IMG/VR virus record: IMGVR_UViG_2778261688_000003
Length of the DNA stretch: 3,435 nt
Strand: one strand, 5' to 3'
From: a virus
Lineage: Duplodnaviria > Heunggongvirae > Uroviricota > Caudoviricetes
Below are positions 1-3,435 of this stretch, piece by piece; the first letter of the stretch is position 1; each line of letters opens with the position of its first letter. The translations under genes were made by a program, and so were the position numbers. Below the pieces are notes generated by a model that made no database searches, was not told the origin of the DNA, and saw only the letters and a list, made by a program, of their open reading frames with translations.

Positions 1-489
1 ATGTTGGATGTATTTACTCCATTGTTGAAACTTTTTGCTAACGAGCCACTCGAAAGACTTATGTATACGATTATCATTTTTGGTCTCACTCTCTGGCTGA
101 TACCGAAAGAGTTTACTGTCGCATTCAATGCTTATACTGAAATACCTTGGCTCTTTCAGATTATCGTTTTTGCCTTTTCTTTCGTGGTCGCCATTTCCTT
201 CTCAAGATTGCGAGCACATATTCAAAAGCATTATTCATTACTACCAGAGCAACGAGTATTGCTTCGTTTATCTGAGAAAGAAATCGCTGTATTTAAAGAT
301 TTCCTTAAAACAGGAAATCTTATTATCACTTCTCCTTGCCGTAACCCGGTTATGAAAAAATTAGAACGGAAGGGCATCATTCAACATCAGAGTGATAGCG
401 CAAACTGTTCTTATTATCTCGTCACCGAAAAATACTCCCATTTTATGAAGTTATTCTGGAACAGCAGGAGTAGACGTTTTAATCGTTAG
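1..489 (+). CDS. sieB: Superinfection exclusion protein B (SieB-like), 162 aa, small inner-membrane protein
   Basis: Complete ORF ATG(1)..TAG(487-489) from the six-frame track. Two hydrophobic helix-length segments (MYTIIIFGLTLWLIPKEF; IPWLFQIIVFAFSFVVAISF) followed by a charged C-terminal half. Size and sequence recalled as matching Rac prophage SieB; not verified by search. Confidence 0.8.
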   Translation: MLDVFTPLLKLFANEPLERLMYTIIIFGLTLWLIPKEFTVAFNAYTEIPWLFQIIVFAFSFVVAISFSRLRAHIQKHYSLLPEQRVLLRLSEKEIAVFKDFLKTGNLIITSPCRNPVMKKLERKGIIQHQSDSANCSYYLVTEKYSHFMKLFWNSRSRRFNR

Positions 490-641
490 CTTACTGTGTG
501 CTTCTCCAACCATCGGCGCGCACCAGTTTCGGTTTTAAATGTTTTGCTTTTGGTATACGTCATGGCAGTGAACGTTCCATCCTGGTTGGGGAACACGCCG
601 CACACCAGGGATTCGTTGTTGCCGAGGTCGATTTTTTGCAT
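486..641 (-). CDS. ydaF: Small prophage protein, 51 aa (YdaF-like), function unknown
   Basis: Hand translation of the minus strand: ATG at 641..639, TAA at 488..486, product MQKIDLGNNESLVCGVFPNQDGTFTAMTYTKSKTFKTETGARRWLEKHTVS. Below the size cut-off of the supplied ORF track. The 51-aa size and position between sieB and ydaG match the Rac gene order as I recall it. Only a weak SD (GAGA). Confidence 0.6.
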   Translation of the reverse strand: MQKIDLGNNESLVCGVFPNQDGTFTAMTYTKSKTFKTETGARRWLEKHTVS

Positions 642-651
642 TTTGCGAATC

Positions 652-786
652 TCACATCTTGTTGCTACGTATAGCGACTTCTGCCTGCCAGAGATCCCAG
701 TCGTTGCTGCGTAAAGCCTGCACAGCCTGGTTGTAAGTGATACCGCAACAATCCATCAAATACTGAACTACTTCGTAATGCACCAT
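652..786 (-). CDS. ydaG: Small prophage protein, 44 aa (YdaG-like), predicted single three-helix UBA-like domain
   Basis: Hand translation of the minus strand: ATG at 786..784, TGA at 654..652, product MVHYEVVQYLMDCCGITYNQAVQALRSNDWDLWQAEVAIRSNKM. Strong SD AGGGGAGAG (revcomp of 792-800) about 6 nt upstream of the ATG. Size and position match Rac ydaG as recalled. Confidence 0.7.
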   Translation of the reverse strand: MVHYEVVQYLMDCCGITYNQAVQALRSNDWDLWQAEVAIRSNKM

Positions 787-955
787 CTTATCTCTCCCCT
801 TAACGCCGGGTGGCGGAACTAACTGCTGCACTGCAAAATTTGAATCCCGCCGTCATGTTCATACGCCTCGGGCTGGCTACTTAACCCCTTACCACTGCCT
901 GGTAACTCGAAGTATTGCCCGGCGTTCTGTGGGGCGGGGTGGGTGGTATGCTGGA

Positions 956-984
956 ACTATAGGTAATGCCTAATTGATTGTCAA
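956..984 (-). promoter_or_regulatory. PL-like leftward sigma70 promoter: -35 TTGACA (984..979), 17-nt spacer, -10 TATAGT (961..956); predicted TSS near 949
   Basis: Read directly on the minus strand: consensus -35 hexamer and a 5/6 match -10 with optimal 17-nt spacing. It points toward ydaG-ydaF and is flanked or overlapped by two palindromic operator sites. Confidence 0.5.
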
Positions 985-997
985 TAGGCTATGCCTA
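960..997. promoter_or_regulatory. OL-like operator: two palindromic sites TAGGT-AAT-GCCTA (960-972) and TAGGC-TAT-GCCTA (985-997), centres 25 bp apart
   Basis: Same 5-3-5 palindrome family as the three sites between racR and ydaS. The sites sit within the promoter spacer and directly upstream of the -35, mirroring the OR arrangement. Confidence 0.5.
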
Positions 998-1094
998 ATG
1001 TTTTGAGCGTAACCTAATAGGTGATGGCGACAGCAGAAAGTGATGGGGGGGTTAAATAACGGAATCCAGGAGTTTTCCGTCAGACCATATAAGT

Positions 1095-1571
1095 TTAAGT
1101 TCCAGTTTTTGTGATGTTCTGGCTTTTCCGTTCAGATTCAAGAGCTTTCAGATACTTACCCACTTTCATTTCCATCGCTGCTATGTAGGCGCGAACATCG
1201 TGGTCAACCCAATCTGGTTCTGTAGCATTTCCAGATAACAGGAAAGCTACAATCGCTCTTATTTCATCAGAGGCTGCTTGATAAAGGTTGTTTATATCTA
1301 AAAGTTCACTTTTTGTATCTGAATTGGTGGGGGTTGGTATGGGGTATTCGTTAAGCCCCCAATGCTCTGGACCAACAACATCAGAAAAGAAACGCCATAA
1401 TTCTGGAAGTTTATCTTTACTTATAGAGCCTTTCTTAATCCAGTCATAAATTGATGGTGGTTGGACTTTAAAGTGGCGTGCGACCTCCGCCTTTGATTTG
1501 ACGGATCCCGATGCGATTTTTTTGTTAATGGCCTGCTCTATCGCTCGGCCTAAGTCTTTACCACTAAGCAT
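1095..1571 (-). CDS. racR: Prophage repressor RacR (CI-like HTH repressor), 158 aa
   Basis: ORF from the track, minus strand, ATG at 1571..1569, TAA at 1097..1095. SD AGGAG (revcomp of 1583-1587) 11 nt upstream. N-terminal HTH-like segment (KAEVARHFKVQPPSIYDWIKKG). Divergent from a Cro-like gene across an operator-rich intergenic region. Size and sequence match RacR as recalled. Confidence 0.88.
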   Translation of the reverse strand: MLSGKDLGRAIEQAINKKIASGSVKSKAEVARHFKVQPPSIYDWIKKGSISKDKLPELWRFFSDVVGPEHWGLNEYPIPTPTNSDTKSELLDINNLYQAASDEIRAIVAFLLSGNATEPDWVDHDVRAYIAAMEMKVGKYLKALESERKSQNITKTGT

Positions 1572-1593
1572 TGCTTAATATTCTCCTATGCGC

Positions 1594-1622
1594 ATTACAT
1601 TAGGCAATCCCTACCCTTACTG
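1594..1622 (-). promoter_or_regulatory. Candidate racR maintenance promoter (PRM-like): -10 TGTAAT (1599..1594) with a poor -35 region between operator sites 1 and 2
   Basis: 5/6 -10 hexamer on the minus strand about 23 nt upstream of the racR ATG, with no recognisable -35 (CAGTAA). This would fit an activator-dependent promoter with a very short leader, but it is weakly supported. Confidence 0.25.
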
Positions 1623-1664
1623 CATTAGGCACAGCCTATTGACAATTGCGTTAGGCGTCGCCTA
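1601..1664. promoter_or_regulatory. OR-like tripartite operator: TAGGC-AAT-CCCTA (1601-1613), TAGGC-ACA-GCCTA (1626-1638), TAGGC-GTC-GCCTA (1652-1664); centre spacing 25 and 26 bp
   Basis: Three 13-bp palindromes (5-3-5) read directly from the sequence. The racR-proximal site is the most degenerate (CCCTA half-site), analogous to a weak OR3-type site. Confidence 0.6.
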
Positions 1665-1668
1665 ATAT
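1639..1668 (+). promoter_or_regulatory. PR-like rightward sigma70 promoter for ydaS-ydaT: -35 TTGACA (1639-1644), 18-nt spacer, -10 TAATAT (1663-1668)
   Basis: Consensus -35 with a 4/6 -10 that retains T at -12, A at -11 and T at -7. Operator site 3 lies in the spacer and site 2 abuts the -35. ydaS SD GGAG (1683-1686) is 8 nt before ATG 1695. Confidence 0.55.
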
Positions 1669-1694
1669 TTCTGTGTGTTTTTGGAGTTCATTCG

Positions 1695-1991
1695 ATGAAA
1701 AAAGAGAACTATTCATTCAAGCAAGCTTGTGCTGTTGTCGGTGGGCAATCAGCAATGGCTAGGCTTTTAGGTGTATCACCTCCAAGCGTAAATCAATGGA
1801 TCAAAGGGGTACGTCAATTGCCTGCCGAGAGATGTCCAGCAATTGAACGTGCAACAAGAGGTGAGGTTCTGTGCGAAGAACTTCGTCCTGATATTGACTG
1901 GTCATATTTACGACGTTCGGCATGTTGTTCGCAGAATATGTCAGTGAAGCAACTAAATGACAGTAACAAATCCTCATTTGATCATACCTGA
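1695..1991 (+). CDS. ydaS: Cro-like HTH DNA-binding protein YdaS, 98 aa
   Basis: ORF from the track, ATG 1695 to TGA 1989-1991, good SD. First gene rightward of the repressor, in the Cro position. HTH-like segment (QSAMARLLGVSPPSVNQWIKG). Size matches Rac YdaS. Confidence 0.88.
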   Translation: MKKENYSFKQACAVVGGQSAMARLLGVSPPSVNQWIKGVRQLPAERCPAIERATRGEVLCEELRPDIDWSYLRRSACCSQNMSVKQLNDSNKSSFDHT

Positions 1992-2013
1992 AACATCAAG
2001 AGGCAAATGATTC

Positions 2014-2436
2014 ATGAAAATCAAGCATGAGCACATCGAATCAGTGTTGTTTGCCCTAGCAGCCGAAAAAGGGCAGGCATGGGTAGCCAATGCAATTACT
2101 GAAGAATATCTGCGCCAGGGGGGCGGCGAATTGCCCCTGGTTCCAGGCAAGGACTGGAACAATCAGCAGAATATCTATCACCGTTGGTTGAAAGGTGAAA
2201 CGAAAACGCAAAGAGAAAAAATTCAGAAGCTGATCCCAGCAATTCTGGCAATCCTTCCGCGCGAGCTGCGTCACCGACTCTGCATCTTCGATACCCTGGA
2301 ACGCCGTGCATTACTGGCGGCGCAGGAAGCGTTAAGTACGGCAATTGATGCGCATGATGATGCAGTCCAAGCCGTTTACCGGAAAGCGCATTTCAGCGGC
2401 GGCGGTTCTTCCGACGATTCTGTCATTGTTCATTAA
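2014..2436 (+). CDS. ydaT: YdaT, 140 aa, CII-position protein of the Rac early-right operon
   Basis: ORF from the track, ATG 2014 to TAA 2434-2436. SD AAGAGG (1998-2003) 10 nt upstream. Follows ydaS after a 22-nt gap. Size and sequence match Rac YdaT as recalled. Confidence 0.88.
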   Translation: MKIKHEHIESVLFALAAEKGQAWVANAITEEYLRQGGGELPLVPGKDWNNQQNIYHRWLKGETKTQREKIQKLIPAILAILPRELRHRLCIFDTLERRALLAAQEALSTAIDAHDDAVQAVYRKAHFSGGGSSDDSVIVH

Positions 2437-2499
2437 GCAAAAGTTTCCATGCTGTTTGTGCTTATTCTAAGCCACCGGGCAGCATCATACGGGGCAATT

Positions 2500-3435
2500 A
2501 TGGCCGCATTACCATACATGCAACTGTACATAGCTGATTACCTGGCTGACACCATGCATTTGTCAGCAGAGGAGCATGGTGCGTATTTGTTGCTGATGTT
2601 CAATTACTGGCAAACAGGAAAGCCAATACCTAAAAACAGGCTGGCAAAAATTGCCCGTCTGACTAACGAGCGATGGGCTGATGTTGAACCATCCTTGCAG
2701 GAGTTTTTTTGCGATAACGGCGAGGAATGGGTGCATCTTCGGATTGAGGAAGATCTGGCATCAGTCAGGGAAAAATTAACCAAAAAATCAGCCGCAGGAA
2801 AAGCATCTGTTCAGGCCAGAAGAAGCAGAAAGGAAGCAGATGTTCAAACAAAACAAGAGAGAAATTTAACAGGTGTTCAAACAGATGTTGAAGTGGTGTT
2901 TGAACATGATGTCAACACAAAGGCAACTAATAAAGATACAGATAAAGATCTAAAAACAGATCCCCCCCTAAATCCCCCCCGGGGGAATCGAGGTGTCAAA
3001 AAGTTTGACCCTCTGGATATTACTTTGCCGAACTGGATTTCTGTCTCGCTTTGGCGTGAGTGGGTTGAATTTCGCCAGGCATTGCGAAAACCGATTCGAA
3101 CGGAGCAGGGCGCTAACGGGGCGATAAGCGGTCGCGAGACGTTACGGGCTCTGGAGGCTAAAACCGGTGCATCAAGGTATTACATAAGCACTCTCGCCAG
3201 AGAACTAGTCGCCAGTGGTGATGTTTACAATTCAGGCTACGGATTATTCCCGTCTGAGCAGGCGCGTAAAGACTGGCAAAACGCCCGCAAAAAACTATCA
3301 AGGACAAAGGTGAAGAAACCGGTTGTGGTTGATCCTGACCTTATCTGGTCATTACCAGACGGAGAAATACGCCGTTACGACAGGCGTCTGAACATAATCT
3401 GTCGCGAGTGCCTGAAGAGTGAAGTTATGCAGTGA
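2500..3435 (+). CDS. ydaU: YdaU-like DUF1376-family prophage protein (putative replication-initiator position), ending at the window edge with TGA
   Basis: Long ORF 2449..3435 in the track. The start is placed at ATG 2500 (M18) because the sequence MAALPYMQLYIADYLADT... looks like the conserved family N-terminus and a G-rich SD-like element (GGGG 2491-2494) precedes it. ATG 2449 and ATG 2518 lack an SD. Start choice is uncertain. Confidence 0.75.
   Translation: MAALPYMQLYIADYLADTMHLSAEEHGAYLLLMFNYWQTGKPIPKNRLAKIARLTNERWADVEPSLQEFFCDNGEEWVHLRIEEDLASVREKLTKKSAAGKASVQARRSRKEADVQTKQERNLTGVQTDVEVVFEHDVNTKATNKDTDKDLKTDPPLNPPRGNRGVKKFDPLDITLPNWISVSLWREWVEFRQALRKPIRTEQGANGAISGRETLRALEAKTGASRYYISTLARELVASGDVYNSGYGLFPSEQARKDWQNARKKLSRTKVKKPVVVDPDLIWSLPDGEIRRYDRRLNIICRECLKSEVMQ
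2837..2919. repeat. Iteron-like cluster inside ydaU: TGTTCAAACA direct copies (2841-2850, 2874-2883), inverted copy TGTTTGAACA (2897-2906), CAGATGTT (2837-2844, 2882-2889), degenerate copy GATGTCAACA (2908-2917)
   Basis: Read directly from the sequence. Followed by an A-rich stretch (2920-2960) and two C7 tracts. Position in the linker of the putative initiator gene resembles the arrangement of lambda ori inside gene O. Confidence 0.4.

Follow-up and report, generated by a model that had tools for sequence, protein, structure and literature searches.

What is a cluster of short direct and inverted repeats doing inside the coding sequence of ydaU, a gene of the Rac prophage of Escherichia coli? 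The stretch of DNA analysed here, 3,435 bases of the virus record IMGVR_UViG_2778261688_000003 from IMG/VR (hereafter the window), is that part of Rac in which the immunity and early replication genes lie. The repeats and the A-rich tract that follows them occupy positions 2837-2963, between the end of the N-terminal domain of YdaU (nt 2805) and the start of its C-terminal module (about nt 2965). We read this interval, with a probability of roughly 0.72, as a Rac-type replication origin embedded in ydaU, and most probably as the sequence behind oriJ, the origin of Rac defined by genetics; the reading is built from comparisons of DNA and protein sequences, from gene order and from a predicted fold. 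The parts of ydaU that enter the argument are given below by position in the window; the family core mentioned there is the heptamer GTTSAAC, which recurs in homologous genes.

2500-2805, plus strand: N-terminal DUF1376 domain of YdaU, a predicted winged-helix origin-binding domain
2592-2603, plus strand: related copy GCTGATGTTCAA, within the N-domain coding region
2677-2689, plus strand: possible auxiliary site GCTGATGTTGAAC, with the exact family core GTTGAAC at 2683-2689, within the N-domain coding region
2841-2850, plus strand: copy 1, TGTTCAAACA, with core GTTCAA at 2842-2847; adjoins 11 inserted nucleotides that other enterobacterial homologues lack
2874-2883, plus strand: copy 2, TGTTCAAACA, which aligns with the conserved CGTTCAACG of the family
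2886-2895, plus strand: copy 3, degenerate TGTTGAAGTG, with core GTTGAA
2897-2906, minus strand: copy 4, inverted TGTTCAAACA (read as TGTTTGAACA on the plus strand), forming a dyad with copy 2
2908-2917, plus strand: copy 5, degenerate GATGTCAACA, with a CAAC half-site
2922-2963, plus strand: candidate DNA-unwinding element, GGCAACTAAT followed by AAAGAT ACAGAT AAAGAT CTAAAAACAGATCC, with two GATC sites
2962-2985, plus strand: C7-TAAAT-C7-G5 block CCCCCCCTAAATCCCCCCCGGGGG, encoding PPLNPPRG, at the start of the exchangeable C-terminal module
2965-3126, plus strand: what remains of the YdaU C-terminal module, truncated, with the DnaT-like residues 210-285 mostly deleted

The repeats in Rac exceed chance. 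The decamer TGTTCAAACA occurs at 2841-2850 and 2874-2883, with its reverse complement at 2897-2906; CAGATGTT is found at 2837-2844 and 2882-2889, and GATGTCAACA at 2908-2917. A repeat search also returned a four-copy family, AAGCAGATGTTCAA, at 2801, 2834, 2867 and 2879 (spacings of 33, 33 and 12), and no exact copy of the decamer beyond these three was found in the window, which brings the Rac total to three exact and two degenerate copies. When the codons of the linker were resampled synonymously, keeping the peptide, none of 20,000 samples contained three or more copies of any 10-mer; base shuffling of the linker gave 61 such samples in 20,000. The hairpin potential of 2868-2912 is also elevated (z = -2.8). 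The inverted copy is translated as V-F-E-H and not as the DVQT or GVQT peptide, so a repeated peptide cannot explain it.

Homologous genes provide a larger sample of the same linker. We fetched 80 homologue loci, one genome per species, and several phage loci besides; the counts below are over 71 non-redundant loci, with protein identities of 23-100%. The 1,894 database matches to the N-terminal part of the Rac protein were saturated by near-identical E. coli proteins, and a domain profile search added 465 further, diverse DUF1376 matches. In nearly all loci the conserved AGKAS end of the N-domain is followed immediately by clustered copies of CGTTCAACG or CGTTGAAC, which have the core GTTSAAC and lie in both orientations, then by CAAC-TAA(T/C) and a hexanucleotide repeat, often with a C-rich/G-rich block behind it. 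These repeats were found across gammaproteobacterial, betaproteobacterial and alphaproteobacterial homologues. The hexanucleotide varies by host, being (GATACA)n in enterobacteria, Pseudomonas, Azotobacter and Alphaproteobacteria, (AACCAG)n in Achromobacter, Bordetella and Polaromonas, and (AACCAT)n in Acinetobacter, with (GAAGA)n in some Pseudomonas. At +360..389 nt from the start of the gene, the density of GTTSAAC over the 71 loci is 21 per kb, compared with at most 0.5 per kb in the 1.5-kb flanks, an enrichment of more than 40-fold at the position of the linker.

The way in which these copies are read indicates that the array is a DNA-level element and not a peptide repeat. The 82 linker copies fall into codon phases 1, 2 and 3 in the proportions 23/36/23, lie in both orientations, and encode at least a dozen tripeptides, including RST, PLN, VQQ, CST and VEQ. 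Nearly all inter-copy spacings (32 of 34) are multiples of 11 bp: 19 of 11 bp, eight of 22, two of 33, one of 44 and two of 55, the other two being 34 bp. Because an 11-bp period changes the reading frame with every unit, the array is a helix-phased DNA repeat and not a protein repeat. The (AACCAG)n tract is likewise read in two frames, giving NQ in some genes and EP/PE in others. Aligned with its enterobacterial homologues, Rac shares copies 2-5 and CAACTAATAAAGATACAGAT, the latter nearly invariant among them, but it departs somewhat from the rest of the set. One inserted nucleotide in Rac gives GTTCAAACAG in place of GTTCAAC-G and lengthens the period to 12 bp, so that DNA translated as C-S-T in Citrobacter becomes V-Q-T at the homologous place in Rac (TGTTCAAC-type copies); in the enterobacterial alignment of the linker, DNA is thus conserved where the peptide differs. 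The unit under conservation is the 7-bp core GTTSAAC phased at 11-12 bp. The initial annotation had given a 10-mer as the repeat unit: its coordinates were all correct on recheck and its copies are real, but the 10-mer is not what the family conserves.

The association also holds in the opposite direction. IMG/VR was searched with a pattern defined on DNA only (two GTTSAAC 11 bp apart, then GATACAGATACA within 30 nt), which matched 36 contigs. In 34 of them a DUF1376 domain is encoded on the same strand, its end lying 11-63 nt ahead of the first repeat; the other two, with just 207 and 259 nt upstream of the pattern, are too short there to judge. On the matching contigs the open reading frame runs on past the repeats into many different C-terminal modules. 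Absence of the repeats from otherwise conserved ydaU homologues had been named at the outset as an argument against an origin; they are present in those homologues, and in the reverse search they predict the domain.

Variation within the family follows the N-domain. A divergent DUF1376 subtype (Pusillimonas, Brachymonas, Corticimicrobacter) has eight to nine AACCCAG/CTGGGTT copies at the equivalent place, spaced at 11, 33, 11, 17, 17, 11 and 11 bp (L071, L073 and L082; gene nt 300-520) and followed by (CCCAAT)n. DUF1376 proteins with a T5orf172-like insertion have GTAGCTAC-type palindromes before (GATACA)n (L032-L038; gene nt 380-720). Phage 673R7 combines an unrelated N-domain with an 87%-identical C-domain, and its repeats are GTTAC/GTAAC. 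The reverse exchange is seen in E. coli M15 and 2013C-3277, where the Rac-type N-domain and repeats are kept to about 2944-2950 and then joined to a different C-domain, with a 'replication protein P' gene (lambda-P-like) next downstream. The repeats travel with the N-domain, and the C-terminus appears to go with the loader, a modularity that is known for lambda-type initiators.

By gene order and domain make-up, YdaU is placed and built like a lambdoid initiator. Its N-terminal 102-104 residues or so, counted from ATG 2500, match Pfam DUF1376 (PF07120) with 92.1 bits against a gathering cutoff of 30.1, and at E-values up to 0.1 this was the only Pfam match in the protein, the lambda O family (Phage_rep_O) giving none. 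YdaU is accordingly not a lambda O homologue by this search, though it appears to work likewise. A Protein Data Bank (PDB) sequence search with the N-domain profile gave no significant match, so the fold was predicted instead. The AlphaFold2 model, made with 84 diverse homologues, is a confident one, with a predicted local distance difference test score (pLDDT) of 91.7, and consists of helix-helix-helix-wing followed by a long helix; it resembles the winged helices of ORC/Cdc6, RepA_N and DnaD.

Residues 210-285 of the intact 285-residue YdaU weakly match the C-terminal domain of DnaT (phmmer against PDB: 2ru8, E = 0.003; 9zbt, E = 0.01), and the module from residue 173 onward is common, by tblastn, to many phage 'replication protein O' sequences with unrelated N-domains. 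In PHROGs, YdaU is a 'primosomal protein', with matches to 'replication initiation O-like' confined to its C-part, and YdaV is a 'DnaC-like helicase loader'. In intact Rac, ydaV directly follows ydaU, and the order cro/cII-like gene, ydaU-like gene, loader recurs in Pseudomonas and Bordetella phages. Where the protein ends in ...(I/V)P(P/D)GFRG (L005, L006, L011-L017, L033 and L034), a YdaV-like loader of at least 50% identity lies immediately downstream in nine of nine non-redundant loci, and phage 673R7 has the same tail with a YdaV-type loader despite its unrelated N-domain. The tail may be a docking peptide for the loader. The C-domain as a whole showed no clean correlation with the loader detected by BLAST; only the link between GFRG tail and YdaV-like loader was clean.

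Directly behind the repeats lies the DNA that would be expected to melt. The A-rich tract at 2920-2960 has a GC content of 0.33-0.37 and an AT skew of up to +0.5, and no 40-bp duplex within ydaU is less stable than 2924-2963 (-43.3 kcal/mol, compared with a window mean of -53.3 and a standard deviation of 4.2). Strain BR1220 has the ydaU-to-DUF977 module intact, and there too the A-rich 40-mer is the minimum, 3.6 standard deviations less stable than the module mean. The A-rich segment pointed out in the initial annotation can be described more closely as a degenerate hexanucleotide repeat, for which Tandem Repeats Finder reported period 6 at 2930-2949. The C/G block that follows it has counterparts in Achromobacter and Bordetella homologues, with similar CCCCCTA(A/C)CCCCCGCAAGCGGGGG / CCCCCTACCCCCCGCAAGCGGGGG blocks. 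The homopolymer runs at 2962-2985 could be prone to slippage. A hairpin between C7 and C7G5 (2955-2990) was considered and dropped, being no better than that of shuffled sequence.

Signals of other kinds were sought over the same region. No DnaA box within one mismatch was found in ydaU or close to it, and with it no DnaA-box cluster of the oriC type. One oriC-like 13-mer, GATCTGTTTTTAG, lies at 2950-2962, but the window has six such matches against two expected, barely above chance, and the match was given no weight. A promoter and terminator scan of 2400-3435 returned nothing within the repeat region. An Rfam scan of the whole window at E of 1 or less yielded only a chance, sub-threshold match to a CRISPR direct repeat away from the array, so no known RNA accounts for the repeats.

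Together these features suggest how a Rac-type origin would operate. The DUF1376 winged helix of YdaU would bind the GTTSAAC-type repeats, in Rac TGTTCAAACA and its degenerate copies. Since the repeats lie about one helical turn apart and in both orientations, several initiators could be assembled on one face of the DNA. Their assembly would melt the adjacent, least stable A-rich hexamer tract at 2922-2963, whereupon the DnaT-like C-module of YdaU would bring in host DnaB via the phage DnaC-like loader YdaV. What the analysis shows is the anatomy, the conservation of the DNA, the low stability of the tract, the predicted fold and the gene order; binding, melting and helicase recruitment are steps that we infer. 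A bolder version can be imagined, in which DUF1376 and the DNA downstream of its coding sequence form an undescribed portable cassette of initiator domain and origin, distributed over phages and prophages of Gamma-, Beta- and Alphaproteobacteria, and the hexamer repeat is a specific single-strand landing pad and more than a generic A/T-rich melting region. The DnaT-like module, or else the loader and helicase, would then recognise the tract in steps of 3 or 6 nt, which would explain why a hexamer sequence is kept in G+C-rich hosts, e.g., (AACCAG)n at 50% G+C. We regard this extension as speculative and rather unlikely.

Origins of this general kind are known. The lambda origin lies inside gene O, flanked by the N-domain, which binds DNA, and the C-domain, which recruits the loader, with the P loader gene downstream; the origin consists of repeated dyad-like sites (four 19-bp iterons) followed by an A/T-rich, strand-asymmetric tract. 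The Rac array resembles it in lying within the putative initiator gene between two domains, in having three exact and two degenerate repeats, with dyad character, followed by an easily melted A-rich tract, and in the inheritance of N-domain and origin as one module and C-domain as another. It differs in its 7-bp core phased at 11-12 bp, its hexanucleotide melting tract, an initiator for which no sequence relationship to O was found, and a C-module that is DnaT-like and, in Rac, paired with a DnaC-type rather than a P-type loader. In P22 (gene 18/gene 12) and in the Bacillus phage SPP1, where oriL lies in gene 38 (G38P/G39P), the organizer gene likewise contains repeats and has a loader or helicase gene as its neighbour; protein families and repeats are different there, and the Rac N-domain is like the DnaD-type and RepA_N winged helices at the level of fold only. 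The host itself has the gene order dnaT-dnaC, which ydaU-ydaV mirrors, the YdaU C-terminus resembling DnaT and YdaV resembling DnaC. That similarity to DnaT is weak and spans about 70 residues, DnaT lacks DUF1376, and its role is in PriA-dependent restart rather than at an origin of defined sequence.

These comparisons support placing the Rac element in a known class, the lambdoid origin within an initiator gene; new would be the initiator fold family, the 11-bp-phased 7-bp core and the hexanucleotide melting region. The proposal with which the analysis began, an origin in the interdomain linker of a gene at the initiator position, has strong comparative backing, with family-wide DNA conservation, gene context and predicted fold in its favour. 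If it is correct, oriJ, unmapped in accessible sources, would be pinned to about 130 bp, and DUF1376 would gain a function, origin recognition. Conservation of a repeat core across distant hosts is unusual for phage origins, so the core could serve as a DNA signature that predicts prophage origins. The natural domain swaps would offer sets for studying how initiators are coupled to DnaC-type and P-type loaders.

Further sites may lie upstream, within the N-domain coding region. GTTSAAC shows a second family-wide density peak at +180..210 nt, matching the 2677-2689 site in Rac, where homologues have two GTTGAA(C) copies 11 nt apart that overlap a conserved DVE..LNEFF peptide. For the Leu there, 13 of 15 loci use the rare codon TTG, as against 19% elsewhere, with G as the preceding third base in 14 of 15. 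Such a bias suggests that the DNA itself is under selection, though this is not cleanly separable from coding constraint, and 2677-2689 may be an auxiliary binding site.

The comparison with oriJ begins from a shared prophage. The 2834-2965 block is 100% identical in K-12 MG1655 (NC_000913.3), K-12 being where oriJ was defined, and in phage vB_EcoS-683R6. Of 5,426 complete E. coli genomes, 865 contain the block, 729 of them with an identity of at least 99%. The dyad of copies 2 and 4 does not change across variant E. coli alleles, and neither does CAACTAATAAAGATACAGAT. A comparison of six E. coli sequences showed copy 2 to be invariant and copy 1 to have one substitution in PapM-36-2; among variants, copy 3 keeps GTTG, and the AA that follows is variable. 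In some strains the array is broken by IS600 or by truncation, as in 7_26_9A, where IS600 is inserted in copy 4; in E. coli ECMA0423 and in Shigella flexneri the gene diverges directly after copy 4. Potrykus et al. reportedly studied oriJ-based plasmids in 2000 (cited in PMC11014345). Rac is described as having an active origin, oriJ (PMC3945230). NC_000913.3 carries no origin feature and annotates ydaU merely as a DUF1376 domain-containing protein, and titles and abstracts in the literature yielded no study of DUF1376 function.

Several observations weigh against reading the array as an origin, or as oriJ in particular. Copies 1, 3 and 5 vary among E. coli alleles, the Rac copies fit the family core at only six of seven positions (GTTCAAA, GTTGAAG, TTTGAAC), and their spacing in Rac is 12 bp, not 11, so that the reading frame is kept. 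The homologue counts given above are not phylogenetically independent. (GATACA)n is always read Asp-Thr, which implies some protein-level constraint on the linker. The K-12 Rac is described as replication-defective by recent authors (PMC11014345). The primers that De Paepe et al. list in a supplementary table as 'framing oriJ' (PMC3945230) amplify 155 bp inside ydaV (6570-6724 of the BR1220 locus, L001), about 650 bp downstream of the array; inspection of that amplicon for origin-like features revealed none, and its translation includes GKPGTGKN, which we read as a motif like a nucleotide-binding loop. The accessible literature yielded no mapping of oriJ to the nucleotide, so that we can only infer that the 2834-2965 block is oriJ.

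Other explanations of the array differ in how much of this they can accommodate. The initial annotation had itself allowed that the repeats might merely reflect a low-complexity linker, in which peptide repeats (DVQT/GVQT/DVEV, KDTDKD) arose by slippage and the DNA as such has no role. The region does lie between two folded domains, the Rac periods of 12 or 33 bp preserve the frame and give (G/D)V(Q/E)(T/V) peptides, and the unvarying Asp-Thr of (GATACA)n fits as well. Such a linker is nevertheless insufficient alone, given that homologues read one core in three frames and in both orientations, with spacings of 11 bp that change the frame; the VFEH reading of the inverted copy, the 0 of 20,000 in synonymous resampling, the different frames in Rac and Citrobacter and of (AACCAG)n, and the conservation of DNA where peptide is not conserved all stand against it, and we consider it very improbable. 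We give just as little credence to the notion of a recombination 'linker', a homology patch kept at a module boundary, without protein binding, that promotes exchange of N- and C-modules. Module boundaries do fall at the end of the block, and many C-terminal modules have been joined to a common series of N-domain, repeats and hexamer tract. Left unexplained would be the 11-bp phasing, the dyad, the co-variation of repeat and N-domain subtype, and persistence across hosts that differ in G+C (Escherichia, Pseudomonas, Achromobacter). Boundary and origin also coincide in lambda-type initiators, so the location of the boundary follows from an origin and does not constitute an alternative to one.

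More serious, though still improbable in our judgement, is that DUF1376 or another protein binds these sites for a purpose other than initiation, such as autoregulation, a roadblock to transcription in the ydaUV operon, centromere-like partition, packaging or recombination. The linkage of DUF1376 to the repeats demonstrates association only and not the role of the complex, and the possible extra sites in the coding region could suit looping or repression. Phasing at 11 bp is typical also of centromere and operator arrays, and plasmid R1 parC has 11-bp phased repeats of a similar kind. What favours an origin over these roles is that the gene occupies the lambdoid initiator position and is followed by a helicase loader, that its C-domain is common to O-like initiators and resembles DnaT, and that the least stable tract always comes after the repeats, where neither an operator nor a centromere needs it. 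No partition genes are adjacent.

In the window itself, the origin is probably an inactive relic. Its genes, and the junction that interrupts the last of them, are as follows.

1-489, plus strand: sieB
486-641, minus strand: ydaF
652-831, minus strand: ydaG-like open reading frame
1095-1571, minus strand: racR
1695-1991, plus strand: ydaS
2014-2436, plus strand: ydaT
from 2449 or 2500, plus strand: ydaU
3126/3127: deletion junction (L001 6126 / 7928), 1801 bp lost in comparison with BR1220

Window positions 1-3126 are identical to 3001-6126 of the BR1220 locus and 3127-3435 to its 7928-8236. The junction joins codon 226 of ydaU to DUF977 codon 24, in frame and without microhomology, and the 1801-bp deletion takes out the last 59 ydaU codons, all of ydaV (the DnaC-like loader) and one DUF1627 gene. 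With the C-terminal 59 residues of YdaU lost and ydaV deleted, the origin cannot fire on its own here, and could do so only if initiator and loader were supplied in trans. The junction is found in none of the 5,426 complete E. coli genomes, which raised the suspicion of an artificial splice; this was ruled out by the exact 328-residue fusion protein encoded on at least 21 draft contigs (e.g., GCA_002228955.1 and GCA_012088795.1), which makes the deletion a natural one. On these contigs Rac is a remnant of about 4 kb that comprises an integrase fragment, sieB through ydaT and the fusion, with a GmrSD gene downstream. The window would thus show an origin relic retained beside the addictive racR-ydaS-ydaT module in such a remnant.

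The start of ydaU also bears comment. RefSeq places it at ATG 2449 (285 residues in intact strains), and ATG 2500 is the start supported by homologues, MAALPYMQLY being the opening of all distant ones. The 17 extra residues from the 2449 start, MLFVLILSHRAASYGAI, are probably not translated.

Elsewhere in the window, GCCTAAT occurs five times compared with 0.5 expected, in two clusters (968-999 and 1599-1666) on either side of racR; one falls between racR and ydaS, the other about 100 bp past the 3' end of racR. From its layout this looks like an OR/OL-type set of operators for RacR.

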